A DNA stretch of 64,000 bases from Eubacteriales bacterium. Its GTDB lineage: Bacteria; Bacillota; Clostridia; Oscillospirales; CAG-272. The notes beneath the pieces were generated by a model, which did not search any database, had not been told where the DNA came from, and was given only the letters and a program-made list of their open reading frames with translations. Where the stretch lies: assembly GCA_045538895.1 (NCBI GenBank), contig JAZQEH010000080.1, positions 13,491-77,490 of the forward strand, written 5' to 3'. Below, piece after piece: positions 1-46,507 of the stretch (positions are counted from its first letter, which is position 1; every line of letters begins with the position of its first letter). The position numbers and the translations under genes are program-made.

Positions 1-547
1 AAAGCTCGCCGTCAATCATCACCGGAGCGGTTATTCTTTCTTCTACACCGTTTACAATCGCTATCGGCTCTCCCTCTGTGAGTCTGATTTCACAGATATC
101 ATAGCGAGAGGACGCTTCTGCCGCATGAATAAGGCTTACATCTTTACTCACTTCAAAATCACCGCTTACCGTCATTGTGACAACTCCCTCAAGGAAAAAG
201 TCAAGGTGATAATACTCGTCAAATCCGATTTTGTTCAGCGGAACCGAAAAATAGTTTTTTTCATCCTCAGTTCCTAAAAACATAGTCACAGTTTCGGCGC
301 TGACATCAATATCTGTTATTGTGGCAGTGACAACCTTGCTTTCGGTAGTAAGCTTCAGCACTCTTATAACACGAAGCAAGTCGCCCTCACCGTTCAAGCA
401 TTCTTGGAGAACTCCCAACACATCGACGATTTCAACCTTTCCGTCCGCTGTAACATCATAATAGCCGTAATCGCCTTCATTAATGGCAAAAACCGAAAAA
501 GTGAAAACAAACACCGCCAAAGCAATGCAGATTATGTATCTTTTCAT
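1..547 (-). CDS. Secreted protein, partial (runs off the window start), with an N-terminal dockerin-like segment and the start of a copper-amine-oxidase N-terminal (stalk)-like domain
   Basis: Not in the ORF track. Hand translation from ATG 547 (RBS GAGGT) is open to the window edge: MKRYIICIALAVFVFTFSVFA signal peptide; DVTADGKVEIVDVLGVLQECLNGEGDLLRVIRVLK; later EIRLTEGEPIAIVNGVEERITAPVMIDGEL. Confidence 0.75.
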   Translation of the reverse strand, partial: MKRYIICIALAVFVFTFSVFAINEGDYGYYDVTADGKVEIVDVLGVLQECLNGEGDLLRVIRVLKLTTESKVVTATITDIDVSAETVTMFLGTEDEKNYFSVPLNKIGFDEYYHLDFFLEGVVTMTVSGDFEVSKDVSLIHAAEASSRYDICEIRLTEGEPIAIVNGVEERITAPVMIDGEL

Positions 548-574
548 TTTACTTACCTCTATATTTGATGTTAC

Positions 575-603
575 ATTATAACATATAATTTATTATATGT
601 CAA
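575..603 (-). promoter_or_regulatory. sigmaA/sigma70 consensus promoter for the 1..547 gene
   Basis: TTGACA (603-598), 17-bp spacer, TGt-TATAAT (580-575). Confidence 0.8.
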
Positions 604-635
604 AAAAGGATATCGGATTTCTCCGATATCCTTTT
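604..635 (-). terminator. Rho-independent terminator after the GH4 gene
   Basis: aaaaggatatcgga-tttc-tccgatatcctttt hairpin with T tract. Confidence 0.8.
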
Positions 636-639
636 GATT

Positions 640-1953: not shown

Positions 1954-1966
1954 AAGAGTTCCCTTT

Positions 1967-4900
1967 CTACCTTACCACAGATTTTAAAACTCTAATTACA
2001 TCAAGCAAGGTAATTTCGTTGTCATGATTAATATCCAAAGCATAAACGTAAGAGTTATTTACCGCCGCTTTTATCGCAAGCAGAGCATCATATAAAAATG
2101 CTTCACCTCTTGCAAGTTCATTTACCGCCGTAAACGGAATTTTCACACCGTTTAGCGTAAAGTCCTCAAAAACTATTTCATTATTAAATGCACTGTTGCC
2201 GCCCATCTGGCTTGCAATAACAATTTTGAGCGACTCAGCATTGCTTACACCGTCATGCGAAAGAGTGCCTGACATCTCGGTAAAGTTTATGCCGTCATAG
2301 CTATAGTAGCCGTAGAAAACATCGCCCTCTCTTGTGATGCGAAGCCATGCGGGTTTATCAAAATTTGTATCTGCGGTGTATTTCTCCACGTATTTTGTAG
2401 TGTAGGTATAAAAGTCAAATACATTGCCCACAGTGCCAAGCTTGCTTGCAGGTGCATTTGCATTATTACCGAGCGTGGGATGGAAACGGCGTGCCATTTG
2501 TATTACACTTGAACCATCCGCATATACACCCACAAGGCAAGAATTATATGAATGTGTCAATATACCGCTCGTTTTTACGGTTACGCTGAAATCTCCTTCA
2601 GGCGCATCAATCATCCACATATTGGCGGGCTCGTTTTCTTCTGCCACGCCTATATAACCGATGCTTGTTGTCATTGTAAGCTTATATGGGTTAATAGCAT
2701 CGAGCACGGCACGCTCGCCAAAATTTTTCGCTTTATTTTTAACAGTCCAATCGTCAGCAATGTTATTGCCACCCAAAACACGAACCGAAAGTTCTGCTTT
2801 AATCTCGCCGTCAAACGCACTTGTAGCGGTAACTGTTGCATTTCCGTTTGCAATTCCCACCATGTGACCGTTTTTAACAGTTACAACACTATCATCGGAC
2901 GTTGTCCAGATTACATCCGGACAAACGGTATTCGACTTTGTGAGAGGTGCAATCTGCTCCTCCCCGACAGCCAAAAGCGTTTGTGTGCTTGCAAAACCAA
3001 GTTCACTTGATATATTATCGGCAGGAACTATCTTCAATACTGCGCCGCCGTTTACTATAAGGTCAACGGCGATGATATCGCCCGCAGTTACGGTCTTATA
3101 CTCCACTACACCGTTACTGCCATCGGCATTATCGCCGTAAATAGCAACGTTGTAATTCCCGCTTGCAAGAAAATCGGTATCAACGGTAATTGTTCGTGCA
3201 TCGGTTGTAATGCCCGCAACATACCAAGTCTCACCGCTCTTGCGTGCAAGTACGGTATACTGTTCGGGATAACCGTCAATAAAATGAATATCATCCCAAT
3301 GCGTGGGCAGGTCATAGTAGAAATAGTAGAAAGGCGAATTGTAATAAGCACTCGGCGAAGATGCCATTGTGAGCATACCGCACTCAATAAGTGTTGCAAG
3401 TGCCGCCTGATGTCCTATAGTAGTATCAGAATTTGAGAACGGATATACCGCAGGGGTGAAATCGGTAGATCCGAGAGAACCTCGGGTGAAAGGAATAAGC
3501 GTGGTATATTTAGCTTTTGTCTTCATTGCCTCATCCCCGTATACCGCTTCTTTAGCAATAATATTGGGATAGGTCATACGTTCACCGGTAGGCTTGTTTG
3601 TTCCATGAATATTTACAACAAGCCCCAGTTCTCTGCATTTTTCAAGTATACGATTATAGTATACCACGATTGTAGAGGATTCGCTATCAAAAAAGTCAAC
3701 TTTTATACCCGCAAAGCCGGCTTTTTTGATATCTTCAAGGAAAACAACCTCGCTCGCAGTGTCTACTGCACGGCGATTGAGCCATGCGATAAGTTTAACA
3801 TCTCTTTCATTTGCGTACTCCATTATTTCAGGAAGCCAATCGTAAAAACCGTCATATGTACGGGTATCATATGTATAATCTTCTGCGTGAGGCTGCCATC
3901 CCTCGTCAAGAATGAAGTATTCCCATTTCATCTCGTGTGCAAGGTCGATATAGCGTTTAAGAAGTTCAACGTCATCCTGTCTGGGGGTGCCGTCATTGAG
4001 CCATGACCATGCACTTACACCTGTTTCAACATAGGAATAGTCACCGTCTGTCTTTTCGGTGAGTGCATCTACCATTGTGTTTTCAACCATTGTCGCAAGT
4101 GTACCACAGATTACGGTACGCCACGGAGTTTGACACGGCGCTGTGAGTGAAACGGCTCCGCCGTTCTGGTAGGCAGCATATACAAGTGAAAACGAATTGT
4201 CTCCGTTTGCACTAATAACGCTGCCGGCAAAACCGCTTGCAAACATATCCGCTTCGGTAAGCAAACACCAAACGCCATCGGTGGTGTTATACATAGTGGG
4301 AAAATAATACATTCCGCTCATATTTTCAACTAAAGCATTTGTATATGCCGCACTGTATGCATTACTTGTGTTAGCCGTTGCCATTGCCCAAACATTTGAT
4401 AAAGCAGGAATAGAAATAACAGAGCAATCCTCAGTAATCTTTACATTTCCCTCTCCGCTCAACGCCTGACGGAATGCAACACCGTCATTATATGCACGGA
4501 AAATAACCGAGTATCCGTTCTCGAAATTGACAGTAAGCTCGTTTGCGTGATTCAATATCTGCTTATACGAACCGCTTGTCATTGATACGGTTTCGTTTAA
4601 AGTCTTTGTAGCTATACCTGCCAAAACAAGACCGCTTGAATAATCGGCAGTTGTTGTAGTAAGTCCAACCTTACCGCTCTCAAGTACGGCTTTACCGTCC
4701 TTTTCAACTGTATAAAGCACTTCACCGAGAGAAGAAAATGAAATTGTAGCCACAACGCTTTCATCGGGGGATTTTACCTTTGCTATCTCAACAGAAGTAG
4801 GAGTTTCTTCAAATACCGCAAGTCTCGGATTCTCCGTATCGACCCATGCTTTACCCGAGTTAAGAATTTCAAATTTTTCGGTACTGTACACTTCTCCGTA

Positions 4901-6127
4901 AGCATCAGTTAAACTGCTGTCAGCAAAAAATGCCCCGCTTACAGTAAAATTAGTATCTCCCGATGAGGTTACGGTGCCTACAGTACCCATACCCGTAGAT
5001 GAATTTGAATTGTAGCAGTTTGTGAGAGTTTTCTTTGCATTTCCGCCGTTAATTCTTGCAGAAATTCCGCCCGCAATACCGCTTCCCGTATCGTTAACCT
5101 TGCCGTTATTCAAGCAATTCGACACATTTGTGTAAAAATGCAAACCTATTATGCCGCCAGAGTACTTGGAAGTTGCCGTAATCTCTCCATCGTTTTGGCA
5201 TTTTGTAATATTAACGCAGTCGGCAAGTGCCTTGCCGAAAGTTATATATCCCGCAATACCGCCAACATCCTGCGTAGATGTGACATCACCGCTATTCTTG
5301 CATGTGCTTACCGTTAGTGTACCCATGTTTGCGGCACTACCCATATTTGCATAGCCAATGATACCCGCAGTTCCCGTCGAGCCGCCGGTTATATCACCCG
5401 TATTAGTGCAATTGGTAATGGAAACAGCTAATTTTTCGGAACCGAACGCACCGGAGCCAAGAATACCGCCTACTCTGCCGCTACTGCTTGTTACGTCTCC
5501 GCTATTTTGGCAGCCTTTTACCGTAACAACGCACGATACGTTTATGCTTGCATGTCCCACGATACCGCCTGCATAGTTACCTGCATCCACAGTAGCGTTG
5601 TTTATACAATCAATCACTTTAATTGTATATGTGCTACTGGTATTCATAAAACCGATAATACCACCACTGTAACCGCCACCGTCAACAGTACAGTTGTTCA
5701 CACAATTCTCTACGGTTACTCCGTTTGCGCTGTAGCCGATAAGACCGCCCGTATACTGCGAGCCTTTAACGCTTCCGCTTACTGTGAGATTTTTTACAAC
5801 GGCACCGTTTGAAATGCTACCAAAGAATCCAACACGTTCGGCATCAATATCCAAAAAAATTCCGTTAACAGTGTGTTCACCACCGTCAAAACTGCCGTTA
5901 AATGCATTTTCCTTTGTACCTATAGGTGCCTGCGGCAAATCACTTTGGGCATCGGCCATATTGATATTTGCAGTGAGAACAATATCGCTTGACCAAAGGT
6001 CGGGATTGTTCATAAGTGATAAAAGCTCATCTGCGGTGCCGATTTTAACGTTTTCTGCCGCCCCTACAGAGCACACGAGTAAAACCGTCATCATAAAACA
6101 TAGAGAATAAAATATCCTGTGTTTCAT
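1967..6127 (-). CDS. Secreted modular GH97 glycosidase (retaining type): GLUG-like beta-helix repeats, GH97, Ig-like (Big_2), ConA-like domain, C-terminal dockerin-like
   Basis: Signal peptide; GGIxG/NCxNxGxV repeats; FRAYNDGVAFR, TPWR, AWSW, ILDEGW, GIKVDFFD, HGTNKPTGERMTYPN, DFTP, GYPEQYTVLARKSG; DINHDNEITLLDVIRVLK. Confidence 0.85.
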   Translation of the reverse strand: MKHRIFYSLCFMMTVLLVCSVGAAENVKIGTADELLSLMNNPDLWSSDIVLTANINMADAQSDLPQAPIGTKENAFNGSFDGGEHTVNGIFLDIDAERVGFFGSISNGAVVKNLTVSGSVKGSQYTGGLIGYSANGVTVENCVNNCTVDGGGYSGGIIGFMNTSSTYTIKVIDCINNATVDAGNYAGGIVGHASINVSCVVTVKGCQNSGDVTSSSGRVGGILGSGAFGSEKLAVSITNCTNTGDITGGSTGTAGIIGYANMGSAANMGTLTVSTCKNSGDVTSTQDVGGIAGYITFGKALADCVNITKCQNDGEITATSKYSGGIIGLHFYTNVSNCLNNGKVNDTGSGIAGGISARINGGNAKKTLTNCYNSNSSTGMGTVGTVTSSGDTNFTVSGAFFADSSLTDAYGEVYSTEKFEILNSGKAWVDTENPRLAVFEETPTSVEIAKVKSPDESVVATISFSSLGEVLYTVEKDGKAVLESGKVGLTTTTADYSSGLVLAGIATKTLNETVSMTSGSYKQILNHANELTVNFENGYSVIFRAYNDGVAFRQALSGEGNVKITEDCSVISIPALSNVWAMATANTSNAYSAAYTNALVENMSGMYYFPTMYNTTDGVWCLLTEADMFASGFAGSVISANGDNSFSLVYAAYQNGGAVSLTAPCQTPWRTVICGTLATMVENTMVDALTEKTDGDYSYVETGVSAWSWLNDGTPRQDDVELLKRYIDLAHEMKWEYFILDEGWQPHAEDYTYDTRTYDGFYDWLPEIMEYANERDVKLIAWLNRRAVDTASEVVFLEDIKKAGFAGIKVDFFDSESSTIVVYYNRILEKCRELGLVVNIHGTNKPTGERMTYPNIIAKEAVYGDEAMKTKAKYTTLIPFTRGSLGSTDFTPAVYPFSNSDTTIGHQAALATLIECGMLTMASSPSAYYNSPFYYFYYDLPTHWDDIHFIDGYPEQYTVLARKSGETWYVAGITTDARTITVDTDFLASGNYNVAIYGDNADGSNGVVEYKTVTAGDIIAVDLIVNGGAVLKIVPADNISSELGFASTQTLLAVGEEQIAPLTKSNTVCPDVIWTTSDDSVVTVKNGHMVGIANGNATVTATSAFDGEIKAELSVRVLGGNNIADDWTVKNKAKNFGERAVLDAINPYKLTMTTSIGYIGVAEENEPANMWMIDAPEGDFSVTVKTSGILTHSYNSCLVGVYADGSSVIQMARRFHPTLGNNANAPASKLGTVGNVFDFYTYTTKYVEKYTADTNFDKPAWLRITREGDVFYGYYSYDGINFTEMSGTLSHDGVSNAESLKIVIASQMGGNSAFNNEIVFEDFTLNGVKIPFTAVNELARGEAFLYDALLAIKAAVNNSYVYALDINHDNEITLLDVIRVLKSVVR

Positions 6128-6292
6128 ATTACTTCCCTCTTCCTAAATTTTTGTTAATATAATGGTATCATAAATAAGATACACAAAACATAGCACAAAA
6201 TGATTAATAACTTGTCATAAAGTGATTTAATTTTGCTTTAACGCTTGACATGACACCTTGATTCTTGTTATTATTTGACTTGAGGTGAGCAT

Positions 6293-7103: not shown

Positions 7104-9842
7104 TTATTTTACGCTTTGCTTAAGCAATCTGAGTATATCAACAAGCTCTACGCTTGCTCTGCCGTAAAAGTATTCACTCTTATCAAAGCTGTTGTTTACA
7201 AGAGCTTTGAGAGCATAGAGGGTATCAAAGATATCAATATCGCCGTTTGCATCAAAGTCGCCGGTCAAAAGTACGGCGGTTGTAACGTTTGCACCCTTGT
7301 TTATTGTAACGCTACCGGTATTCTTTTCATAATCATGAGTGCGAACCAAAAGGGTGTGCTCACGAATCGGATAATTCTTATGCCATGCGTTTACATTGAA
7401 TTCAACCGTGCCTGTGAGATAGTTGTGACCGCAAGCACCGCTGAAACGACCGTTTGTATTATAGGAAATATCCTGCATTACGATACCGCCGCCAACATTA
7501 ATTACCATATCACCCGAATATGTGCCAACCTCTGCAGCAGAATTATAGAGATAGTTACCGCCGTTGATATATGCGTAATTACCGCCGTTGATATTGATGA
7601 CACAATCCTTGTCCGCCTGAATATTAGCCTCTATCGTGTGGTATGTAGAAGCAGTATTGGATGCGTAGGTAACGTATCCTGCAAGCAAGCATGCATAATG
7701 ATTTGCCTCGGTCTTAAAGCTCTCTGTAAGAGTTGCATTGTTGTAGCCAAGCTGAATAAAGATTGAATTCGATGCCGACGTGGTAAGAGTGATATTATCA
7801 AGCACGATATCACTTTCCGCAAGGAAATACTTTGAGCTTAAAGTAAGCTTTGCACCCGTTCCCTCGCCCTTGATGGTAAAGCTTTCTACGGGAGGAGTTG
7901 AAAGGTTGCGGTTTGCATCGTAAAGCTCTGCGGTATACGCACCGATAACATGGAGAGTAGCGTTGGGAGCCGCCTTTGCAAAAGCAATCATAAGGCTGTT
8001 TGTGGGGTTTTGCTCGGTAGCAAACATATTGGTAGTGCCGTCTGCCTTAAGATAAATATGCTCGCTTTCAAAGCCCTCAAGACGGCAAACACCATTATCC
8101 ATTGCATTGCAAAGCACGTCTACATAAATTGCATAGCCGTCGGCATGGGGATGAAGGTCATCACTTGAAAGGAAATTGCCCGCAAGTGCCTCCTCAAGAG
8201 TGAGTGCATAAAGGTCAACAAGCACATACTTATCACTCGTTTTAGCGAGTGCCTCGGTTGCCTTGATCTGCTGTGCACGTACGGTGATTGCACCGTATCC
8301 GAGAGTGGAGGGACGGTAGGTTGCGGTTGTTGCGTAAACCTTATCGGTTGTTGCAAGCGAGCCGAAATCCTTGAGAAGCTCAGTATACTCGTTGTAGAAG
8401 CGAACTATCTGGCTCTTACCGCCCTGAATTACGCCGGAATCGTTAGTGCCAAGACCGATAATAAAGATGTCGGCATCGGATTCAAGTGCAAGGTTGTATG
8501 CAAGCATATCGTTGTAATACTGGGTGTTGTAGTTTTCAACTCGTGTACCGCTACAACCGTAGTTACCGAGAATTACGTCTTTGCCCTCACCGTGAAGCTT
8601 TGTGAGAAGCTGTGCGGGGTATGAGAGAGTCTGGCGGCTACCCGAAGAATTACCCTCGGTAATAGAGTCGCCGATACATGCGATACGGAGAGGCTCATTA
8701 TAAGTTACGGTTTTGCCGTTAACCGTGTCAAAACGCTTAACGGTTACGTTCATGCTTTCGGGATATGTAAGAGTTGCCTTGTTTTCACTGCCCGCAAAAG
8801 CCTTAACCTGTGTTGCATCGAGCACCATGCCGCCCTGTAACGTAGCATTATCGGAAATAGCGAGATTGTAGTTTCCGCGGAGAAGCATGGTATATACGGA
8901 GGAATTCTGGAAAGCGCTGATTTCAAAGGTGTTGAAAGTACCGCCATTTATGTTGACATTTATATCGCCGTCACAGCGGTAATACTTTACATCGGACTTT
9001 GTAATCTGTGAGCCGCCGCTTGCTGCGGTATTCATTTCGCCAAGGTGTCCCTGTGCATAAACGGGTGCAAGGAAAGTACCGCCGTTTATAGTGAGAGTTG
9101 CATCGTCAGCAAGAATGGAGTAGCCGGAAATGCTGAAGAGGCACTCGGTCTTAATGGGTGAGTTTGCGGTATAGGAAGGTGCACTTCCGAACGTACCGCC
9201 GTCAATAGTAATCGTAATGGGTGCCGCAATAGAGCCAACGATTGCGTTTGCAGCACTTCTGCGGTTACCGCCAAAGAACTTGGCAAACGTACCGCCCTTT
9301 ACGGTAATGGAGTAAGGACGTGTTGCGATGCAGTATTGATTTGCAGGGTCGTTGACAGCTCTGTCGCCGACGCCGCTTGTGGCATTCTTGCCTGAATCAA
9401 CACCACCGTAAAATGAAAGCGCACCGTCAACGGTAACGTTCTCGGTAAAAAGAATACTGTTGTAGCTACCGAACATCGCCTGCGCACTTTCAAGCTTGAT
9501 AGGACAGTCTATTGTAATAAGATTGTCGTTTTTATTCTTTGAAAAGTATAAAGTACCTGCAATGTTAAGTACACCATTGCCTTCAGCGGTAATCGTAAGG
9601 TCACCGCTTTGCTCGGGAATTGTGATTGAGGAAGTCTTGATTTCATCAAGCAAAACAATCGTACCGCCCTCGCCGGCAAGCTTATCACAAGCAAGTGCGA
9701 TAGTAGCAACCGGACTATCCTGTGTTCCTGTTCCGCTTGCACCACTCTTTACGTACACGGTTTTTTCAGCAGCAAAAGAGGAGACGGTGAACAATGCAAA
9801 AAGCATTGTCGCAATAAGTAAAAATTTTAATACTTTTTTCAT
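7104..9842 (-). CDS. Secreted SGNH/GDSL esterase with beta-solenoid-like flanking modules and C-terminal dockerin-like domain
   Basis: Start placed at MKKVLK after GGAGG; IACIGDSITEG, NYGCSG, LGTND, DDLHP blocks; GDFDANGDIDIFDTLYALK...LVDILRLLK. Confidence 0.8.
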   Translation of the reverse strand: MKKVLKFLLIATMLFALFTVSSFAAEKTVYVKSGASGTGTQDSPVATIALACDKLAGEGGTIVLLDEIKTSSITIPEQSGDLTITAEGNGVLNIAGTLYFSKNKNDNLITIDCPIKLESAQAMFGSYNSILFTENVTVDGALSFYGGVDSGKNATSGVGDRAVNDPANQYCIATRPYSITVKGGTFAKFFGGNRRSAANAIVGSIAAPITITIDGGTFGSAPSYTANSPIKTECLFSISGYSILADDATLTINGGTFLAPVYAQGHLGEMNTAASGGSQITKSDVKYYRCDGDINVNINGGTFNTFEISAFQNSSVYTMLLRGNYNLAISDNATLQGGMVLDATQVKAFAGSENKATLTYPESMNVTVKRFDTVNGKTVTYNEPLRIACIGDSITEGNSSGSRQTLSYPAQLLTKLHGEGKDVILGNYGCSGTRVENYNTQYYNDMLAYNLALESDADIFIIGLGTNDSGVIQGGKSQIVRFYNEYTELLKDFGSLATTDKVYATTATYRPSTLGYGAITVRAQQIKATEALAKTSDKYVLVDLYALTLEEALAGNFLSSDDLHPHADGYAIYVDVLCNAMDNGVCRLEGFESEHIYLKADGTTNMFATEQNPTNSLMIAFAKAAPNATLHVIGAYTAELYDANRNLSTPPVESFTIKGEGTGAKLTLSSKYFLAESDIVLDNITLTTSASNSIFIQLGYNNATLTESFKTEANHYACLLAGYVTYASNTASTYHTIEANIQADKDCVININGGNYAYINGGNYLYNSAAEVGTYSGDMVINVGGGIVMQDISYNTNGRFSGACGHNYLTGTVEFNVNAWHKNYPIREHTLLVRTHDYEKNTGSVTINKGANVTTAVLLTGDFDANGDIDIFDTLYALKALVNNSFDKSEYFYGRASVELVDILRLLKQSVK

Positions 9843-9946
9843 AAGCCCTCCCAAAATTGTTAGGTTATAGAAATATTTTAACATATACATTAAAACGTGT
9901 AAATATCAAAAATGATAATAAATATTACAAATATGAAACAATACAC

Positions 9947-12945: not shown

Positions 12946-12968
12946 TTATGTTTATTCCCTTCTTATTT

Positions 12969-14606: not shown

Positions 14607-14640
14607 TTTTGTGAATTTCCTTTCTTTAATTAAGCCGATA

Positions 14641-14664
14641 TTGCGGCTCCTTTCGGAGCCGCAA
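14641..14664. other. Intergenic GC-rich hairpin without a clear U tract (possible mRNA-stabilising or processing stem)
   Basis: ttgcggctcc-tttc-ggagccgcaa between the dehydratase and flavoprotein genes. Confidence 0.5.
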
Positions 14665-14681
14665 CACGGTAGTTTGAAATT

Positions 14682-16370: not shown

Positions 16371-16397
16371 TGCTTTATTCTCCTTATAATTTAATAA

Positions 16398-17264: not shown

Positions 17265-17300
17265 TTTTGTTTCCTCCAAAGATGATTATATATTTTGTTT

Positions 17301-18170: not shown

Positions 18171-18188
18171 ATTTACCTCTTTAGCAGA

Positions 18189-18848: not shown

Positions 18849-18892
18849 CTTTTTTACCTCTTTAGATTTAGAAAAAAGTTATTTACAAAGTT

Positions 18893-18974: not shown

Positions 18975-18976
18975 TA

Positions 18977-24900: not shown

Positions 24901-26241
24901 CCCGTTTTCGGCATTGAATACACCGCTACCGCCAAGCGTAATTCCCGAAAATTCACTTTCACCCGAAAGCGTATACGTACCGTTGAGCGTAAGCGAGATT
25001 GAGGGCGTTTTACCTGTGATAAATACTTTTTCTGCATGTACAGGCTCAACAAAGCTATCTACGGAAATACTGTTCAAAAGCACAACGGTACTGCCCGATT
25101 TTGCCGCAATGTTAAACGCCGCTTCAAAGCTTGCAGGGTCATCAACCGTGTTTCCGCTGCCGCTTGCACCATTTTTTACATATATTTTTGCTATATTCTC
25201 GGTATAGTCAAAGCCTGCCTTAAAAGCTTCAATGTCTTCCGGAGCATAATAGTTTGCATTGTAATACAGGTAAAGAGGCTTATTGGTTTTTTCATTGAGT
25301 GTCGAAACCTCATCGTTTGCATACCATACAGACATTGAACCGATTTTAGTACCGTTAACAGTGATCTTACCGGTACCGATAATATTATTTACGTTGAGAT
25401 TTTTGATTTCGCCACCGTTGAACACGGCATTTGCATCGCCATTCAGACGGCGAGAAAGGTCACCTGCCACGTTACAGTCTTCGATATAGCCGCCGTTAAC
25501 TGTAATGTCAGCACTTGTACTGTACTGATATCTCACAGAGCCGCCGAAGAGATTGGCAATTCTTCCTCCATTTATTGTCATGTAGTGCGTACCGGTAAAA
25601 TAAAGAGGCGTCTTATCAAAGGAATCTCTTGTACCGCCGGCAACGATGTAATAGTCACCGTCTTCAATCGTAACGTGGGAATCCTTTGTAACGTCGGCAT
25701 CGGCTTTAGGTGCCTGATAGCCGCCAAGTACCAGAAGCTGACTGCTCTCACCTGTGAGATTTACGGTTTTAACGCCCTTGCCCATTCTGATATTATTATA
25801 CTGGGCGATAATGTTAAGCGACTTTGAATATTCAATAGTTATATTCTCAAATGCAGTATCACCGTTTAAATAGTAGCGGAGTGCAGAGCCGAAAACAAGC
25901 TTCGCCCCGTTTTCTTTTGCATAGTCGGTTTTGCCGTCATTTGAAGTAAGAATAATAGGATAATCATGTGCCGCTTCTGTCGGAGAAGATTTAAAATGAT
26001 ACTCGTTTGTAAAAACCACAACAAGCGTACCTACTTCTCTGTCCTTACCGTAGTTTACGCCCCATGTCCACGTTTTAAGCGGATTTTGCGGCGAATCTCC
26101 GTTACCCGAAACATCACGTCCCGTTTCGGAATTAACATAAACATACGTGTAATCAGCCTCTTTGGCGCCAACGGAAAACGTCATCGCACACGCAAGCAAA
26201 AGAAGCATTGCTAAAGCTACTGCGTAAAGAATTCTTTTCAT
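21964..26241 (-). CDS. Cell-surface GH43-like glycosidase with three N-terminal beta-solenoid-like modules and C-terminal SLH domains
   Basis: Signal peptide MKRILY; GADPWLFYHDGFYYY, WSPEIH, WYLYFA, NPWT, IVYSA, YKLGQL; SLH motifs FTDV..HWF, FSPNGNFTVAQA, ITRGDMA, YRPDEEIVRSE. Confidence 0.8.
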   Translation of the reverse strand: MKRILYAVALAMLLLLACAMTFSVGAKEADYTYVYVNSETGRDVSGNGDSPQNPLKTWTWGVNYGKDREVGTLVVVFTNEYHFKSSPTEAAHDYPIILTSNDGKTDYAKENGAKLVFGSALRYYLNGDTAFENITIEYSKSLNIIAQYNNIRMGKGVKTVNLTGESSQLLVLGGYQAPKADADVTKDSHVTIEDGDYYIVAGGTRDSFDKTPLYFTGTHYMTINGGRIANLFGGSVRYQYSTSADITVNGGYIEDCNVAGDLSRRLNGDANAVFNGGEIKNLNVNNIIGTGKITVNGTKIGSMSVWYANDEVSTLNEKTNKPLYLYYNANYYAPEDIEAFKAGFDYTENIAKIYVKNGASGSGNTVDDPASFEAAFNIAAKSGSTVVLLNSISVDSFVEPVHAEKVFITGKTPSISLTLNGTYTLSGESEFSGITLGGSGVFNAENGVLEIAKDVKTEKKLNVTGSAILRSGSVGSVINAKRVIVDGADVETIVGGNNTVIEVNGGSVKTVKSSENGGEIFDITVNGGNAEKVIFNSVSKKLVLKYLGGKVGTFECIGTNVHGKATLGDGITAEALGNVKGLFDTSADRVYFIRDGGTGNGGTFASAGSSFDEAYNALGNEGGTIVVCGKVTITAAVLGYKYKHDGKVIVTSLYDGVDYIKENGAEIVFRNNYHCGGETEFNNIHLSSEAKYKAIAGECHKLVLGDGIVCDRVAGQTYMTVIGGGIGDISDKTTDVTVKSGKWGRLRGGTSGNATNCTVNVRIEGGEFYDAMVLGSTSAHTGDINATFTGGTMYASVLSANITKEEQVFDSNVNLGIAGGTFYNKFLYAASANGTYKGVYNVHITGGDFAHLVEFTGSGNVDGVPSFINSTVDLCEIETGTYTFTNYVREDGADPWLFYHDGFYYYTSTTGKPGIGLTKTANIGDLIYTTGKTVFLPEEGKAYSKSCWSPEIHHYTDEEVGEGNGGWYLYFAGSGGETENDTGHRMFVLKCLDGDNLLGRWGHPITGEVNVPEKVSVELEGFNDRWSGGQTDIRIGGKVYNLFVAVEGEEGKMNQNINIIEMTNPWTIKGKSTILVRPEYDWEIGRHTTLTIVECGTAVYGDDGSIYIVYSACGYNTPEYKLGQLKFLGGDPLDAKNWVKSSEPILSMNDEICGIGSASYVDDSSGQGWICYNAYLGTDTNGGRYAFVEPYRADKDGVVISEGTGHPSSPDRVYTQVVNPNPVINKISGFTKVDYTKNPFAAKRQYTGSFTDVSDTHWFKSYVETAYQIGLANGTSAAKFSPNGNFTVAQALTAAANIHSLYADKTVRNAALGEAWYVPYVEYCVQNGIITEGQFADVNKNITRGDMAIVFASILPGSEYEATREGSNPDVTSDMACYNAVSKLYKAGIVSGDAGKGTYRPDEEIVRSEACVIFTRIALKNMRVK

Positions 26242-26280
26242 AACCGTACTCCTTTTAAGCATTCCTGTTTTGTGAGAATA

Positions 26281-28558: not shown

Positions 28559-31500
28559 ATGAAAAAGGTATTTATATTTTTTCTTGCATTTATGCTTATG
28601 CTTACTCTGACTGTTGCGGCATCTGCCGCCACTGTATACGTTTCAAACGGCGGAAGCGGAAACGGGCAAAGTGCTTCCGCACCGCTCGGCTCGCTTACCG
28701 ATGCATATGCCGCAGTCGGAAACGATGGCGAAATTGTGCTTGTAGGCACGGTTTCGGTACCTGTTAACAAAATCGGTACAACCAGAAATGCGTTTGTCGA
28801 GCCTGCACACAGCGGCAAAATTACGATCCGAGGCAACGACAAAGACGCATGTTTGCTTTTCGACACCGTTTTTGAATACTACATCAGCGGTGAAACCGAA
28901 TTTAAAGACCTGACAATTTCTTCAGGCGACCGCACATCGGGACTTTACATGGCGGCAAGAGGAAACCACCTTACAATGGGTGAAGGACTTACTATGCACT
29001 CAAACGGTACCGTTGCTAACGGCTCCTACAAGGAAGTCGGTACAAAACTGTATCTGTATGCAGGCTGCATGAACGGTGTTACATATGACGGCTATACCGA
29101 TTGCGACAATCACATGACCGTAAAAAGCGGAACCTATTGGGGTATAGGCGGCTTTAACCGCAACCAGAACGTGACCACCACAGGTCATTCAACGCTTGAA
29201 GTTGGCGGTGACGTATACGTAACGTACCTGATTGCAGGCTCCACAGGTACCTCCTCATTTGCCGCTCCGTCAGGCATCGACTTATACATCATCGGTGACA
29301 TGACCATCTCAAAGCAGATTTCTCTCGGTAACCAGAACTCCGACGTTGCTTCGTTTGACAGCAACTTAATAATTAAGGATGGAAAAATCAATTATATCGG
29401 CAACTTCATAGACTACAACGCACGCAAACGTCTTACCACGCTTGATATTTACGTCAACGATTCATCCGCATCAGCACTCTCAACATATTCCTCCCTTTTT
29501 GCCGGCTACGGCGACAGAGAGGGCACTATGGCAGATTACTGCAAAAATGAACACGGTGCTCACTCATATAAAAACGATATCTGCACCGTTTGCGGAATTT
29601 CAAAAACCGCAGCAGAATGCACGTCACACAACTTTACAACTTCTACGGAGGGCACTATAGTGTCAAACACTTGCAAGAACTGCTCGTTCACATCAAAATC
29701 CACAACCAAAACCGACGCACAAAGCGGAGTTTACACATATACAAACGGTACTTTACGTGTGCAGATACTCTCCGACAGTATCATCCGCATTGAGGAAAGC
29801 GCAAACGGCACTTTTGTTGACAAGGCAACGCTTGTTGTGCCTGATCGCTCGGTTTTCGGCGGCACAGACGTTGTTATTGACAGCGACAAGGACACAGTTA
29901 TTCTTTCAACCGAAAAGTTCACAGTTAACATACCCAAAGAAAACGCTACCGCCGCATCTGTAAAAATCTTTGCAAAAGACGGTGAAGAGCTTTATTCCTA
30001 CTTCGGCACAGACAAAAACGGCTTTTACTCTTCCCTCCCCGCTCCTGCCGATACCCCGAATACATATGCAATTATGGATAACGGCATAATCCCTGCAGAC
30101 ACAGGACTTGTATATAGCGGCAGCGAAGACGAAAACAGCGGTTGGAGCCGCAGCGAAAACACAGACTTGTACGTTCTTATGCCCTTTGGTGACAGTGCAA
30201 AGCTTCGCTATGACTTTGTAACACTCACAGGTAAAACCATGATGTCCGACATCAAAGCTCTCGGCTCATGGTATTCAAAGTGGACAAAATACTCCGGCGA
30301 CGAAAAACTTGCCATGATTGAAAAGTACCGTACAAAAGAAATTCCGCTCGATATGATAGTTATTGACACCGAGTGGAAAAACACCTCCACAAACGGTAAT
30401 GACGGCGACGGTACCGGCTATGAAACAAACTCCGAGCTTTACCCTGATATGAGTGCATTCCTTGCCGCAGCAGAAAAGGCAGGCGTACTTGTACTGTTCA
30501 ATGACCACACCCATCAGACCTCTCTAACCATCACCACTCCTGCTGAGCTTAAATGGCAGTGTGCAGGTATCAGTTCACTTATGGAAATGGGGCTTGACGG
30601 CTGGTGGTATGACAGAAACTGGACATACTCTATCAAATCCCCTTACAGCGACGTGCTTTTCTCAACCATAGGTCAGGTGCTCTACTATGACACTATGGAA
30701 AAATACCACATTGACACAAAGGAGGGCGACTATCCCGAGCGTGTACTCCTCCTCTCAAACGTTGACTGGATAAAGCACGGTCACATCACAGGCAATCCCT
30801 CCATTATCGGTCACCGCTACGGTATTCAGTGGTCGGGCGATATCTACGGTCATGCAGACCAGTTGAAGCGTGAAATCGAGAACATGGTGCTTGGCAGTTT
30901 GAACGGTGCTTCGCCTTATATGTCGAGCGACCTCGGTGGCTTCTGGCATAATGACTGTATTTCCAAAAACCACTTTGTACGTTGGATGCAGTATGGTGCA
31001 TTTTCTCCTACGGTGCGTGTTCACTCCACACTTTCGAGTAATAACGAGCAGCTCCCCTGGAGTTACGGTGCCGACGCTGAGAGAATAATCAAGAATTACC
31101 TCGATATGCGTTACCACCTCATGCCGTACTACTACATGCTCGCACGTGAAAACTACGATACGGGTATGCCGCTTATCCGCCGTCTTGACTTCTATTATCC
31201 TCAGTACGAGGAGTCAAAGGACAACTCACAGTATCTTATCGGTAAAGACGTTCTTGTCGCTCCCTTCTGGAGTACAACCGGTGAAGGACGTGACGTTATT
31301 CCCGAAAGCTGGCTGAAAACTCCTGACGGTAAGCCCGGTTTGCTTGCAGAATACTTCAACACCGAAAAAGGCATGGCTAAAGAAGACTATTACACAGGTG
31401 CTGCAGACCACAGTGAGGTAGTATCGAGCGTTGGTTACTATTGGTACACAGGCTCGCCTAACTCAAAGATAAATACAGACTACTTTGCAGCTCGCTACAC

Positions 31501-32482
31501 AGGTACACTTACACCCGAATATGACTGCTACATCGGTACGTATGCAGATGACGGTGCAAGAGTTTACGTTGACGGCAAGCTTTGGTCAAACGGTTATTCG
31601 TCAAGTCAGGCAAAGCCCTATTTCAATAACACCGACGTTCTTAAGGCAGGAAAATCCTACGATATCGTAGTTGAATACTACGAGCTTTCCGGCAAAGCAA
31701 TTCTCTACTTTGCAAGCGAACCCGTAAACGATAGAAATGTCTCCGAGCGTGACGTATTTATTCCCGACGGCACATGGATCAACATGTTCAGCGGTGAAAG
31801 AGTTACCGGCCCTGTTAAAATCACCGTAAAAGGCGACACAGATCAAATGCCCATCTTTATCCGTGAGGGCGCCGCACTCCCCACAAGCGAGGTTCTCTCG
31901 CCGATGAAGGGTGCCGATTGGCAAAACCTTTCTGTGAATATTTACGGCCTTGACAATAGCGAATTTACGCTCTATGAGGACGACGGCGAAACCGAAGGCT
32001 ATCTTGACGGAAAATTCAGACAGACAAAGGTAAGCGTAACCTCTGTTGCATCTGACGCATGGAAGATAGACATTGAAAAGACAACCGGTGACTTCGCTAC
32101 AGAGTATACAAAGCGAAACGTCAAGATTCGTATTCATTCAAACCTGCCGATAACCTCTGCGTTGATTGGTGACACTGCTGCAACCGTTACCTTGCTTTCA
32201 ATGGATAAAAATGCTTTGCCATTTGCAAATAGCGGAGCCTCTGCAATATCCGACGTTTATGAGATTTCGGCAGAAGTTGACATGAGTAAGGACACAAGCA
32301 TACTTGTAACATCCGCTACTTTAGGCGATGTTGACGGTAATGGCTTCCTTTCTGTAAATGACGTGCTTCTGGCTTTGCGTGGAGTACTCAATAACAAACG
32401 CACACCTGTAGCAGATATGGACAAAAACGGCAAACTTGAACTTTTAGACGTTATCAAACTTTTAAAAGAAGTAGTAAAATGA
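28559..32482 (+). CDS. Secreted GH31 glycosidase with N-terminal module, PA14 insertion, DUF5110-like region and C-terminal dockerin-like domain
   Basis: IPLDMIVIDTEW, LYPD, DGWWYD, HRYGIQWSGD, SSDLGGF, RWMQYGAFSP, YLIGKDVLVAP; PA14 (GLLAEYF, FAARYTG, DDGARVYVDG); LYEDDG; GDVDGNG..D..DMDKNGKLELLD. Confidence 0.85.
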   Translation: MKKVFIFFLAFMLMLTLTVAASAATVYVSNGGSGNGQSASAPLGSLTDAYAAVGNDGEIVLVGTVSVPVNKIGTTRNAFVEPAHSGKITIRGNDKDACLLFDTVFEYYISGETEFKDLTISSGDRTSGLYMAARGNHLTMGEGLTMHSNGTVANGSYKEVGTKLYLYAGCMNGVTYDGYTDCDNHMTVKSGTYWGIGGFNRNQNVTTTGHSTLEVGGDVYVTYLIAGSTGTSSFAAPSGIDLYIIGDMTISKQISLGNQNSDVASFDSNLIIKDGKINYIGNFIDYNARKRLTTLDIYVNDSSASALSTYSSLFAGYGDREGTMADYCKNEHGAHSYKNDICTVCGISKTAAECTSHNFTTSTEGTIVSNTCKNCSFTSKSTTKTDAQSGVYTYTNGTLRVQILSDSIIRIEESANGTFVDKATLVVPDRSVFGGTDVVIDSDKDTVILSTEKFTVNIPKENATAASVKIFAKDGEELYSYFGTDKNGFYSSLPAPADTPNTYAIMDNGIIPADTGLVYSGSEDENSGWSRSENTDLYVLMPFGDSAKLRYDFVTLTGKTMMSDIKALGSWYSKWTKYSGDEKLAMIEKYRTKEIPLDMIVIDTEWKNTSTNGNDGDGTGYETNSELYPDMSAFLAAAEKAGVLVLFNDHTHQTSLTITTPAELKWQCAGISSLMEMGLDGWWYDRNWTYSIKSPYSDVLFSTIGQVLYYDTMEKYHIDTKEGDYPERVLLLSNVDWIKHGHITGNPSIIGHRYGIQWSGDIYGHADQLKREIENMVLGSLNGASPYMSSDLGGFWHNDCISKNHFVRWMQYGAFSPTVRVHSTLSSNNEQLPWSYGADAERIIKNYLDMRYHLMPYYYMLARENYDTGMPLIRRLDFYYPQYEESKDNSQYLIGKDVLVAPFWSTTGEGRDVIPESWLKTPDGKPGLLAEYFNTEKGMAKEDYYTGAADHSEVVSSVGYYWYTGSPNSKINTDYFAARYTGTLTPEYDCYIGTYADDGARVYVDGKLWSNGYSSSQAKPYFNNTDVLKAGKSYDIVVEYYELSGKAILYFASEPVNDRNVSERDVFIPDGTWINMFSGERVTGPVKITVKGDTDQMPIFIREGAALPTSEVLSPMKGADWQNLSVNIYGLDNSEFTLYEDDGETEGYLDGKFRQTKVSVTSVASDAWKIDIEKTTGDFATEYTKRNVKIRIHSNLPITSALIGDTAATVTLLSMDKNALPFANSGASAISDVYEISAEVDMSKDTSILVTSATLGDVDGNGFLSVNDVLLALRGVLNNKRTPVADMDKNGKLELLDVIKLLKEVVK

Positions 32483-36112: not shown

Positions 36113-36128
36113 ATTTATCTCCATTCTG

Positions 36129-40930: not shown

Positions 40931-40931
40931 A

Positions 40932-41954: not shown

Positions 41955-41959
41955 GGCTT

Positions 41960-43120: not shown

Positions 43121-43121
43121 T

Positions 43122-43982
43122 TTATTTTGTAACGTACCTGCCTCGGTCTACAAATTCTTTAGTCTTTTTAGTGCGTTCAACCGCATTTTCATAATGCCTT
43201 GCCGAAAGCGAAATGACAATGGAGTCAAGCACACTTATCTGTGCTATACGTGACGAAATAGCTTCTATGGGGTATTGAATCTCATCTGACGAAATTACTA
43301 TCGGACAGTCGCAAATCTTTGTAATAAGACTGTCGGGAAAGCTTGTAATGCAGGCAGTCTTTGCCCCCATCTCCTTTGCCAGAGTAAGTGCATCGGCGGT
43401 TGCCGTGGTCTGACCGCTGTTTGACACGCCAAACGCAAGATCGTTTGGCTTTATATTAAGCGTTGAAACCTTCATTGACGGCACGTCGGTAAAGCATATT
43501 GCAGTATAGCCGACCTGCGTTAATCTGTACTGAAAATCTGCAGCAATAACCGCAGACGTGCCGATACCGTAAATGTAGATTACATTTGCACTGTCGATAA
43601 GGTCCACTGCCCTTTCCACCGCCGAAGTATCTATTTCCTCAGCGGTATCGTGCAAGGTCTTTACATTTGCAGAAAACACCTTTTCAAGAATACTTTCAAC
43701 ACTGTCATCCTTGTCAATATACGGCACATAATTCAACTGCTTGTTCTTTGAAAGCTCCATTGCAAGTGCGAGCTTGAGCGAAGAATACCCATCAAAGCCA
43801 AGCGTTTTACAGCAACGTATCACCGCAGATTTTACAACACCTGCATTCTCCGCAAAATCCGAAACGGACATGGAAATAACACTGCCGCTTTCTGCCAGAA
43901 TATACTCTGCAATCTTTTTTTCTACAGGGGTAAGCGTATCATATTTTTGCTTTATTTGCGAAAGACATGACTTGTTATTCAT
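43122..43982 (-). CDS. MurR/RpiR family regulator
   Basis: LTPVEKKIAEYI, SAVIRCCKTLGFDGY, YGIGTS, SNSGQT, SRIAQ. Confidence 0.9.
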   Translation of the reverse strand: MNNKSCLSQIKQKYDTLTPVEKKIAEYILAESGSVISMSVSDFAENAGVVKSAVIRCCKTLGFDGYSSLKLALAMELSKNKQLNYVPYIDKDDSVESILEKVFSANVKTLHDTAEEIDTSAVERAVDLIDSANVIYIYGIGTSAVIAADFQYRLTQVGYTAICFTDVPSMKVSTLNIKPNDLAFGVSNSGQTTATADALTLAKEMGAKTACITSFPDSLITKICDCPIVISSDEIQYPIEAISSRIAQISVLDSIVISLSARHYENAVERTKKTKEFVDRGRYVTK

Positions 43983-44013
43983 CGGCGGTTCCTTTGCATT
44001 GGAATTTTGTTCT

Positions 44014-44042
44014 ATTATAGCATTTTTAAAAGTTTATGTCAA
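44014..44042 (-). promoter_or_regulatory. sigmaA consensus promoter of rpiR-MFS-PHP
   Basis: TTGACA-17 bp-(TGc)TATAAT. Confidence 0.8.
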
Positions 44043-44074
44043 TGTAAAAAGCCTGCGTTTGCAGGCTTTTTACA
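44043..44074 (-). terminator. Terminator after the phosphoesterase gene
   Basis: tgtaaaaagcctgc-gttt-gcaggctttttaca. Confidence 0.8.
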
Positions 44075-46507
44075 TTATTTTACTGAAGCTTTCATTATGC
44101 GGAGCACGTCAAGCAGCGTACACTCGCCGTCACCGTTCACATCGGTTCTGTCAATACACTCACTGTCAACAACACAACGGAGTGCGGTCATAACATCTAT
44201 GATATTTACCTCATCATCAAGGTTCACGTCGCATGCAAGCTCATTCCATGCCATTGTGAACTGATTTTCCTTGAGGAAATACTGGTCACGAACTGTGGAA
44301 TAATGCTCAACCTCAACGCACTTGCCGTCCTTGGAGAAATAAAGCATAGTTACCATACCGAGAGCACCACGGTTCTTTTCCTCGGTCTGTGCGTCAATGA
44401 GCATCTGTGTTACGGTATTGCCGTTTTCACCGATATCCTTGCGGAAAACAACGTATGCATGGGGGTCGTGTCCGCTCATTACAAGAATGATGTTCTCATG
44501 CTTCTTTACGAACTTATCCCAAACCTGGTCACCGTTATTGTTGGCGGGGTCGGAATTTGAAGGAGGAACAACGTCGCCTGAGTCAAGCGTTGTGCCGTCA
44601 CGGAACATGTATGCGTGAGTTGTCATAATAACCTTGTGGTCGGGATGTGCCTCACACACAGAGGATGCCCATGCAAGCTCCTCGTCGGTAGGACCGTAGT
44701 CAAGAGTAATGGAAAGGAACTTTTCTTCACCTACTGTAAACGTGCGGTAGGTGTTTTCAAGCTCATCCGCCTTGAATCTCTGCTCGGCGGGGATTTCGGT
44801 TGCATATTTGGAATCTGCCATAGCCGCATTGAACTGAAGCTTTGTTTCGGCAGTAGTAGTCTGGCTATCGTGGTTACCTCTTACAACGCTGTACGGAATG
44901 CCTGCGTCGGAAAGCTTATCAAATGCAGTAACTGCCTCTTCCCATTCACGGATAAGCGAATTATTGGTAATATCGCCAAGTCCGAATACGTATTGAATAT
45001 TCTTTGTTTCCTTATTTGCAATTATCCAATCATAAAGAGTCTGGAAGTGATCGGGATAGAAGTCATTAAGGCACTGTGTATCGCCTACAACTGCAAAGGA
45101 ATATGCATAATCGGTTTCGATTTCTTCTTCGTCAAGCCAGATTCTGTCGTAAACAGCATTATTATTACCTGCAAGGTCGGTTATGCTGTCAGGACGGTCG
45201 GTTACCGTGTAATCAGAAAGGTCATAGTGCAAAATGAGGTTATCGGTACCGTAGGAAACCGCATCAGCAGCAATTTCTGCATCGGTACGGATATCCGAGT
45301 ACACCGCTACGCTCTTAAGATTGCCCTTGAAATACTGTGCGTTACCGCTTCTTGCGTCGCCGCCAAGTACAAATCCGTCAAATCGAGCAGGACCGCCGCC
45401 TACGTTCTTATCGGTTACGGTGTCCAAAAGAGTGCCGTTGATGTAGCCCTTTACAACACCTGCCGCAAAATCATGAGTTACTGCAAGCTTTATCCATTCT
45501 CCGCAATATGCAGATGCATCAAAGTATGCTGCATAGTCATCACCGTTTGCATCTATCCAATAATAACGTAGTCTGCCGTCTGTGTGAATTTCAAAATTGA
45601 CACAGCTTTTTGCTGAACCGGGGTAATTACCGATAATTACACCGCCGCGTGTATCGGATGCAAAGGTAGAGGGGAAATAAAACTCTGCCTCAAAGGTATG
45701 CGGTGCTGCTGCAAGCTCGCCAACGTTGTATGTACCGTTTTCGTTGTCAAACGCCATACCGTCGGTAACTTCAAAATACTCTTCATTGAGCGAGGAATCT
45801 GCCGTATTGGAATAACCGAGATGGTTTGCATTTGCACTGTAATCCTTGAGTCTTTTTGTTCCGCTTACAGAGAAATCATATGCACCAAGGAGTGTATTCT
45901 CGGTATAGTTTACTGCCGCACAGTCGCTTGCAACCTGAGCTGCGGTACGGCTATCGGAATAGAGTGCTACCGAGCCGAGGGTTGTGCTCTTAAGATACTG
46001 GGTGTTGCCGTCACGGAAGTCGCCGCCTACCATAAACTGAGAAAGCGAACTTGCTTCAACGTCTGCAAAGGTCTTTTCAACCGTCTGCTTGAGCTCGCCG
46101 TTGATATAGCACTTTGCATCAGTAGCAGTGCTGACTACCGCTACGTGAGTCCATTCACCCGTGCGGAGGTCTACGTCGGTAAAGTTTGCGGTAACAGACG
46201 AATCAGTTCCTGCTCTCCAGTAAAGATAGGGGTTACCGTTTTTGCGGATTTCAAGGTCCCACATCGTGTTTTTATAAGTACCCGAAACAAAGTTGCCGAC
46301 AATAACGCCAAGACGTTCGGCAGAAGCATCGGCATCAACTTTTACCCATGCCTCAATGGTACGGGGAGCCGCCGTTAGCGCTGACGAGGTTGTGTAGCCG
46401 TCGTCTGCGGTAAAGGTAATGCCGCCCGTTGGTGCTGCAGCCGCAGGCACAAGAGCAAGCGGCAAAAGCATCGCAAATGCGAGCAAGAGCGAAACTATTT
46501 TCTTCAT
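44075..46507 (-). CDS. Secreted 2x LamG-like + calcineurin-like metallophosphoesterase + C-terminal dockerin-like protein
   Basis: TIEAWVK, GEWTHVAV, YING; GDTQ, GLGDIT, GNHD, TTHAY, SGHD; DVNLDDEVNIID..DVNGDGECTLLD. Confidence 0.85.
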   Translation of the reverse strand: MKKIVSLLLAFAMLLPLALVPAAAAPTGGITFTADDGYTTSSALTAAPRTIEAWVKVDADASAERLGVIVGNFVSGTYKNTMWDLEIRKNGNPYLYWRAGTDSSVTANFTDVDLRTGEWTHVAVVSTATDAKCYINGELKQTVEKTFADVEASSLSQFMVGGDFRDGNTQYLKSTTLGSVALYSDSRTAAQVASDCAAVNYTENTLLGAYDFSVSGTKRLKDYSANANHLGYSNTADSSLNEEYFEVTDGMAFDNENGTYNVGELAAAPHTFEAEFYFPSTFASDTRGGVIIGNYPGSAKSCVNFEIHTDGRLRYYWIDANGDDYAAYFDASAYCGEWIKLAVTHDFAAGVVKGYINGTLLDTVTDKNVGGGPARFDGFVLGGDARSGNAQYFKGNLKSVAVYSDIRTDAEIAADAVSYGTDNLILHYDLSDYTVTDRPDSITDLAGNNNAVYDRIWLDEEEIETDYAYSFAVVGDTQCLNDFYPDHFQTLYDWIIANKETKNIQYVFGLGDITNNSLIREWEEAVTAFDKLSDAGIPYSVVRGNHDSQTTTAETKLQFNAAMADSKYATEIPAEQRFKADELENTYRTFTVGEEKFLSITLDYGPTDEELAWASSVCEAHPDHKVIMTTHAYMFRDGTTLDSGDVVPPSNSDPANNNGDQVWDKFVKKHENIILVMSGHDPHAYVVFRKDIGENGNTVTQMLIDAQTEEKNRGALGMVTMLYFSKDGKCVEVEHYSTVRDQYFLKENQFTMAWNELACDVNLDDEVNIIDVMTALRCVVDSECIDRTDVNGDGECTLLDVLRIMKASVK

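Follow-up and report, generated by a model that had tools for sequence, protein, structure and literature searches.

A large dockerin family and predicted single-cohesin wall anchors in an Eubacteriales genome: a probable surface display system with no detectable scaffoldin

Proteins that combine a single type I cohesin with a cell-surface module are known from Acetivibrio (Clostridium) thermocellus (OlpA and OlpC) and from A. cellulolyticus and A. clariflavus (ScaG and ScaJ). The surface module of OlpA is of the surface-layer homology (SLH) type. OlpC and ScaG carry a Cu-amine-oxidase-like PF07833 domain (PMC3413522), and ScaG is reported as abundant and as binding one enzyme (PMC4442141). 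Anchors of this layout, together with many dockerin-tagged secreted proteins, are encoded by the genome of an uncultured Eubacteriales bacterium from the gut, of which a stretch of 64,000 nt (contig JAZQEH010000080.1, positions 13,491 to 77,490; hereafter the window) was analysed. In this organism the dockerin-bearing cargo probably docks one protein at a time on single-cohesin wall anchors, which would amount to general display without a multi-cohesin scaffoldin.

Several other described systems resemble this one. In the non-cellulolytic Paenibacillus guangzhouensis and Lachnoclostridium sp. MSJ-17, the latter with 39 dockerin proteins, a protein has no more than two cohesins, cargo proteins bear cohesins and dockerins as pairs, and surface anchors are present; PMC11557425 describes for them a predicted enzyme-rich surface unlike a cellulosome. 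The enzyme-borne cohesins (X82) and dockerins of Clostridium perfringens also lack a classical scaffoldin, with single cohesins in large secreted proteins and a family 31 glycoside hydrolase (GH31) among the cargo (PMC12997984). Non-cellulolytic dockerin arsenals in gut Clostridia include the Limousia mucinolysome, the Ruminococcus bromii amylosome and the predicted assembly of R. difficilis, for which PMC13463774 gives 80 dockerin proteins and divergent cohesins. The group-2 truncated dockerins of R. flavefaciens have naturally only one loop and still bind cohesin (PMC12270676). Cohesin and dockerin are encoded together in 4333 human-gut metagenome-assembled genomes (MAGs), according to PMC12997984.

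Dockerin modules in the window and across the genome

The window is part of a 2.44-Mb assembly (G000; 121 contigs, 98% complete). An earlier note on this DNA had described an atypical dockerin-like tag in five unrelated secreted proteins. The five modules lie within ~20 bases of the places given there, and the hosts named as GH97, SGNH, GH31 and metallophosphoesterase agree with our annotation. The window translation shows a 56-residue module at the end of these four large secreted enzymes, each with a signal-peptide-like N-terminal stretch, and a shorter copy after the signal peptide of a fifth protein at the window edge. The fifth protein is not an enzyme; it combines a dockerin, an X module, a Cu-amine-oxidase-like domain and a cohesin.

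2..547, reverse strand: window-edge protein, 5' half of a 362-aa gene (G000:C80:12949-14037), in the order signal peptide, short dockerin, X module, partly deleted Cu-amine-oxidase-like domain, cohesin
134..340, reverse strand: ~70-aa X module after the short N-terminal dockerin, found in 4 proteins of the genome
341..472, reverse strand: N-terminal short dockerin of the window-edge protein, second Ca2+ loop deleted
1967..6127, reverse strand: secreted GH97 with C-terminal dockerin; best NCBIfam match retaining alpha-galactosidase, below cut-off
1970..2137, reverse strand: GH97 dockerin, first Ca2+ loop lost
7104..9890, reverse strand: secreted SGNH esterase with C-terminal dockerin
7107..7274, reverse strand: SGNH dockerin, second loop replaced, predicted dockerin fold
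28559..32482, forward strand: secreted GH31 with PA14 insert and C-terminal dockerin
32312..32479, forward strand: GH31 dockerin, both loops intact
44075..46507, reverse strand: secreted LamG-LamG-metallophosphoesterase with C-terminal dockerin
44078..44245, reverse strand: phosphoesterase dockerin, both loops intact, over the Pfam Dockerin_1 cut-off

A profile trained on 54 two-loop dockerins from outside the window matched all five modules, with E values of 2.3e-3 (edge protein), 1.5e-11 (GH97), 9.1e-7 (SGNH), 3.8e-16 (GH31) and 3e-16 (phosphoesterase). The best match of the same profile in a reversed proteome, used as the null, had E = 4.3, and chance is thus not the explanation of the five modules. 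Pfam Dockerin_1 is passed by one of the five, the phosphoesterase copy, in which 47 residues span Pfam positions 3-54. The loss of one Ca2+ loop in three of the five modules, previously noted, is borne out, affecting the first loop in GH97 and the second in the SGNH and edge proteins. On sequence grounds the five modules are type-I-like dockerins rather than a new tag.

The family is not limited to these five proteins. A hidden Markov model (HMM) iterated from the window copies until convergence yielded 89 dockerin open reading frames (ORFs), with 71 C-terminal, 11 N-terminal and 7 internal copies. A signal-peptide-like start is present in 73, and the 89 ORFs total 84,851 residues, or 10.4% of the genome. 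Pfam Dockerin_1 (PF00404) itself gives 62 matches genome-wide, 60 of them over the cut-off. Thus, the description of the tag as atypical is overstated, the more so as one-loop dockerins that bind are on record (PMC12270676). The duplicated Ca2+-loop-helix repeat, in which Asp occupies positions 1 and 12, is present in the family. By a crude regular expression, both loops are intact in 56 of the 89 copies and in two of the five in the window, and at least one loop is absent by the same measure in 33 of the 89. The short linker is confirmed by the loop-to-loop spacing, obtained with the same kind of expression, which is 29 residues in 36 of the 56 two-loop copies.

Conservation was assessed in an alignment (A2) of 56 of the 89 dockerins, to which the conservation figures and the subtype restriction given below apply; left out were 4 poorly aligned copies, 7 of the phosphoesterase type and a remainder of 22, of which most have a longer linker or are N-terminal. 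Conservation is highest, at 82-96%, for Asp12, Asn22, Leu10' and Lys18'. When the dockerin alignment was searched against PDB sequences, EF-hand proteins dominated and dockerins ranked lower, and for this reason the dockerin type was not assigned from that search. The one-loop SGNH copy has a predicted two-helix fold (predicted local distance difference test, pLDDT, 83). When this model is compared with the PDB, dockerins alone take the top ranks, with weak E values (best 0.044). A profile of the subtype, built from this genome and therefore favouring a restricted outcome, finds 74 copies here, 17 in another member of the genus, and 0-3 weak matches in each of 59 genomes of other genera of the family (11 with any). 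The closest named MAGs, one of them from goat caecum, contain 37-77 copies of the subtype. Judged by these profile matches, the dockerin subtype is restricted to the genus.

Two further forms of the module were observed. Short N-terminal dockerins without the second loop occur with the shared 70-aa X module in four proteins (window 134-472; L017; L055:8337-10670), in an order that reverses the X-dockerin dyad. Secreted proteins of 114 and 111 aa (L061:4-345 and L032:13307-13639) contain little beyond a dockerin and are possible cohesin plugs or competitors.

Predicted wall anchors, anchor exchange and tagged cargo

The genome encodes two Pfam cohesins. One belongs to the window-edge protein and lies 146-538 bases left of the window (Pfam Cohesin E 4.7e-6, over the cut-off). 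Candidate cohesin partners of the kind that the earlier note had proposed to look for do exist. The other is an anchor gene (C78:60634-61680) for a signal peptide, one cohesin, a linker and PF07833. This is the OlpA/OlpC-type layout of signal peptide, one cohesin and one wall-binding module (SLH or PF07833). The gene starts 11 bases after a tRNA-ligase gene, which we take to encode glutamine-tRNA ligase, and is followed by a hairpin; promoter-like sites at the locus are at chance level (9 versus 7.7 +/- 2.9). Among 18 genomes of the genus, 13 have an anchor gene after the same ligase gene, with SLH in 9, PF07833 in 3 and a contig end in 1, and in the other five (53-84% complete) the neighbouring ligase gene was not found either. 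The anchor cohesin profile matched 28 solved sequences of cohesins and scaffoldins (best E 1e-12), including 3ul4, titled Coh-OlpA. Both Pfam families, cohesin and dockerin, are present in all 18 genomes, 12 of which have a single cohesin match. The SLH and PF07833 modules point to a cell-surface location of the anchor, and a polysaccharide pyruvyl transferase gene is present in the genome. An unrelated second pair was seen in two genus genomes, G005 and G013 (L097, L100), where a different gene with cohesin and SLH-like regions is followed directly by one for a 224-aa dockerin protein.

The dockerin is exchanged with other terminal modules. A paralogue with SLH, a Cu-oxidase-like domain or a module of ~120 aa that we call XC in place of the dockerin exists for 19 of the 89 tagged proteins (12 with a C-terminal dockerin), for example in a GH43 pair that is 53% identical over 665 residues. 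Three such alternatives are encoded in the window:

21964..26262, reverse strand: GH43 with SLH repeats at its end, paralogous (28% over 883 aa) to a GH43 that bears a dockerin
51219..51605, reverse strand: XC module of an M14-like peptidase with a dockerin-tagged paralogue (45% over ~1200 aa)
56301..56675, reverse strand: a further XC copy, carried by the adjacent M14-like peptidase, for which the tagged paralogue is again at 45%

Since SLH, Cu-oxidase-like and XC modules replace it on paralogues, the dockerin is likely a general surface anchor rather than the mark of a substrate-specific complex. XC itself is well conserved and occurs in 14 copies here and in one copy each in 7 of the 18 genus genomes. 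A wide search gave 132 relatives, C-terminal in 129; 50 of the 132 were scanned with Pfam. Three of the 132 join XC to a cohesin, one being a protein of this genome and one passing the Pfam Cohesin cut-off. This cohesin-XC arrangement parallels cohesin-SLH and therefore suggests XC as a candidate wall anchor. XC had no Pfam match and no meaningful PDB sequence match, and its Atlas matches, all < 0.9, are leads only; a cohesin-like identity for XC was considered and rejected on comparison. The Cu-amine-oxidase-like C-terminal domain is very similar on 14 further unrelated secreted proteins (e.g. L041, L073), and this likeness suggests recent shuffling of anchor modules.

Pfam scans of the 89 tagged ORFs showed a mixed cargo of 14 SGNH proteins, 11 GH43, 10 metallophosphoesterases, 8 BNR (sialidase-like) propellers, 5 LRR_5 and 2 GH31 proteins, one each of GH2, GH3, GH32, GH78, GH97 and GH127, peptidases (2 M14, 2 VanY, 1 S8, 2 S9) and an RHS-AHH nuclease, while 23 have no Pfam enzyme domain. 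PDB searches gave no useful match for the phosphoesterase or for one propeller cargo. The tagged genes are spread across many contigs. No GH5, 9, 48, 13, 20, 29, 84 or 101 was found among the 89 in these scans. Genome-wide, GH9 had no match and a GH5-like domain was found on one untagged ORF; the control of the corresponding GH48 search gave no match, so that absence of GH48 from the genome is not claimable from it. As regards the amylosome, no GH13 family was found on tagged ORFs at E 1e-5 or 0.01. As regards the mucinolysome, GH20, 29, 84, 89, 95, 101 and 136 are absent from tagged ORFs, and the overlap with its cargo is limited to BNR propellers, GH2, GH31 and GH43. The earlier suggestion that these dockerins are lineage-specific and non-cellulosomal is supported by the genus restriction and with the lack of a tagged cellulase. 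The secreted RHS-repeat protein (L040:1-5907; G000:C19:26596-32505) has internal dockerin-like modules and a C-terminal AHH nuclease; it is putatively a toxin directed at other bacteria, and the dockerin system may serve to display it.

By sequence methods, no protein with more than two cohesins was found in this genome, nor any ORF with more than two Pfam cohesins in the 18 genus genomes. A combined profile of 68 cohesin sequences added nothing except a weak match of E 5e-4 to a 187-aa ORF encoded antisense to a large gene. Internal repeats were sought in 347 proteins that are secreted or large, in windows because whole-protein self-BLAST missed known repeats, and were found in 84; no tandem cohesins were seen, with 22 proteins, mostly from anchored ones, read by eye. 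The repeats of these 22 were labelled beta-helix-like, lectin-like, LRR or SLH, in part presumptively. With neither a tandem-cohesin scaffoldin nor a tagged GH5, GH9 or GH48, the set is by these sequence-level criteria not a cellulosome, and by the cargo comparisons above it is neither an amylosome nor a mucinolysome.

Three neighbourhoods in the window were also noted. At 640-7087, a GH4 gene without a signal peptide lies 14 bases after the GH97-dockerin gene, with a divergent AraC regulator; GH97 and GH4 likely form an outside-plus-inside alpha-galactoside unit. Upstream of the SGNH-dockerin gene, at 9980-20011, a catabolic cluster (AllG, CoA-ligase-like, FAD oxidoreductase, IlvD/EDD dehydratase, SDR, metallo-beta-lactamase fold, KDPG aldolase and PfkB kinase) looks like a sugar-acid pathway. 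Fused housekeeping genes are present at 32805-36223, in which LytB (IspH) is joined to S1 domains, and cytidylate kinase to an acyltransferase.

Divergent cohesins and a phosphoesterase cassette

An iterated search found a related cohesin-like domain on 17 further ORFs, some of which are fragments of the same genes at contig ends. The comparison of these divergent domains with the anchor family by hhalign gave 98.7%. For this domain a cohesin fold is predicted: the model of one of the 18 domains has a pLDDT of 90.5, its ten best Foldseek matches are all cohesins (TM 0.66-0.74), and the C. perfringens cohesins 2jh2, 2w1n and 2vo8 are among the fold-search matches. A dockerin is also present on 8 of the 19 cohesin ORFs.

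In seven cases in this genome, a partner cohesin gene directly follows a gene for a LamG-phosphoesterase whose dockerin is of a separate subtype. This subtype has Ser (71%) at helix position 18 and Gly (86%) at position 22, whereas the main type has Lys/Arg (73%) and Asn (96%), a difference that suggests a second specificity. Six relatives contain 14 such dockerins, with a partner gene after 13; the cohesin is visible in 10, the rest being cut by contig ends. In the cohesin tree the partner clade has support of 99/97, which is expected anyway because of duplication, and long branches; two rows of the tree (L091) are from a genome of the same genus, not from other genera, which leaves the partner clade unaffected. 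The partner-type domain is without the Pro-aromatic strand motif that is common to the anchor and the other divergent group. The only cassette phosphoesterase that has the main-type dockerin signature adjoins the most deviant partner cohesin (L052:15127-19758; G000:C20), a single case that hints at co-variation. An adjacent cohesin-dockerin gene pair whose products form a heterodimer is reported from Cellulosilyticum lentocellum (PMC13487519).

Display model, rival explanations and known systems

The dockerins, their cargo, the cohesin genes, the synteny and the tag swaps are directly visible in the genomes, and two folds are predicted, that of a cohesin for the divergent domain and that of a dockerin for the one-loop copy. 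In the model that joins them, tagged proteins would be exported by Sec, and the main dockerin subtype would bind in a Ca2+-dependent manner to the genus-conserved anchor, in which the cohesin is joined to SLH or to a Cu-amine-oxidase-like domain. The cohesin-XC protein and the window-edge protein might be minor anchors for it as well. Presumably, the loss of one Ca2+ loop is tolerated, since both helices are kept. In a second tier, large non-catalytic beta-helix proteins would dock by their own dockerin or by XC, and their divergent cohesin would hold the phosphoesterase encoded just upstream. The resulting surface would bear debranching glycosidases, esterases, phosphoesterases, peptidases and adhesins in a variable mixture. 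Taken alone, the second tier is moderately probable. A more tentative extension, which we consider possible rather than probable, is a genus-wide two-tier anchoring code without scaffoldin, in which a housekeeping-linked anchor would serve the main dockerin, Pfam-invisible cohesins on beta-helix stalks would serve the second dockerin of co-encoded phosphoesterases, and XC would add a third type of wall anchor that can be exchanged for SLH, the Cu-oxidase-like domain or the dockerin.

Several observations weigh against one-at-a-time display on wall anchors or its second tier. One main anchor to 89 clients is a steep ratio, and many clients may therefore be shed. The Cu-amine-oxidase-like domain of the window-edge protein, complete in the G012 ortholog, has an internal deletion here. 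The cassettes are paralogues, for which reason their repeated pairing is not independent evidence. The divergent domains, with no Pfam match and no meaningful PDB sequence match, may be inert spacers; only the canonical anchor cohesin would then bind. This is a real possibility, though a doubtful one, that fits the long branches and the missing Pro-aromatic motif of the partner type, but it sits less well with the predicted cohesin fold and with the position of the partner genes, which in seven of seven cases come immediately after a phosphoesterase with the deviating dockerin residues 18 and 22, and it would alter only the second-tier step. The no-scaffoldin claim is also weakened by the 121 contigs and by scaffoldins that evade sequence search. 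According to PMC13463774, some scaffoldins are found by structure prediction only, including that of R. difficilis, and our result is accordingly a sequence-level negative. A true multi-enzyme complex, built on a polyvalent scaffoldin that is too divergent for such searches or lost in a gap, with the single-cohesin genes accessory as OlpA and OlpC are in Acetivibrio, would also accommodate the 17 cohesin-like ORFs already missed by Pfam. It is nevertheless improbable given the completeness of 98%, the outcome of the combined cohesin profile and the repeat scan, and the 18 genus genomes without any ORF of more than two Pfam cohesins.

The one-loop copies might be decaying relics on proteins that are simply secreted, as the number of copies lacking a loop and the partial or complete loss of binding in most artificial half-dockerins (PMC12270676) would allow. 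This is rather unlikely, however, as both helices and Asp12, Asn22, Leu10' and Lys18' are retained, loop loss recurs in consistent subtypes, one of which has its own X module conserved in G012, and the natural one-loop dockerins described in the same source bind cohesin. Least probable is the dedicated complex for alpha-glycosides, esters and phosphoesters that the earlier note had inferred. SGNH proteins and phosphoesterases are indeed among the largest cargo classes, and the four window enzymes have what we take to be catalytic motifs. But the cargo is broader, extending to GH43, BNR propellers, LRR proteins, peptidases, the RHS-AHH nuclease and proteins in which Pfam sees no enzyme domain. 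The genes are scattered, cohesins number two per protein at most, and on paralogues ordinary wall anchors take the place of the dockerin.

In the literature searched, which was not searched by taxon and did not extend to supplements, whose genome lists may include the lineage, no description of the dockerin subtype, the anchor swap or XC was found. In gut metagenomes, the number of dockerins is often taken to indicate cellulosomes; here dockerin-tagged genes make up a tenth of the DNA, with no tagged cellulase and no detectable scaffoldin. The system also offers a clean case for the debate whether OlpA/OlpC-type anchors are display sites or shuttles to cellulosomes, as treated in PMC12811415 and PMC4442141, and it is a source of dockerins that are compact or have one loop. 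Some of its cohesin-dockerin pairs are candidates for orthogonal use in designer enzyme display, and XC is a candidate for a new wall-anchoring module.

The OlpA, OlpC, ScaG and ScaJ proteins are accessory to large cellulosomes, whereas here such anchors appear to be the whole system, and, in contrast to OlpA and OlpC, a single syntenic gene encodes the SLH form in some genomes and the Cu-oxidase-like form in others. P. guangzhouensis and MSJ-17 belong to other lineages and use other anchors (five SLH scaffoldins; membrane helices), while the 89 dockerins found here are mostly on proteins without a cohesin, include a genus-specific short subtype and are accompanied by cohesins missed by Pfam. 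The C. perfringens set, as far as described in PMC12997984, comprises five plus five proteins, host-glycan enzymes and toxins; the present set is about nine times larger, most of its cohesins are on proteins in which Pfam finds no catalytic domain, and it has a dedicated wall anchor. The mucinolysome, the amylosome and the R. difficilis assembly have multi-cohesin scaffoldins and substrate-defining cargo (mucin glycoside hydrolases, amylases), neither of which was found here. The R. flavefaciens group-2 dockerins are short, and two of them bind to one cohesin, whereas here both helices are kept and either loop may be lost. The system is thus composed mostly of known parts, and is distinguished by its scale, the lack of a detectable scaffoldin across the genus, the SLH/PF07833 swap, the XC module, and the cohesins that Pfam does not see, with the dockerin subtype that is paired with them.

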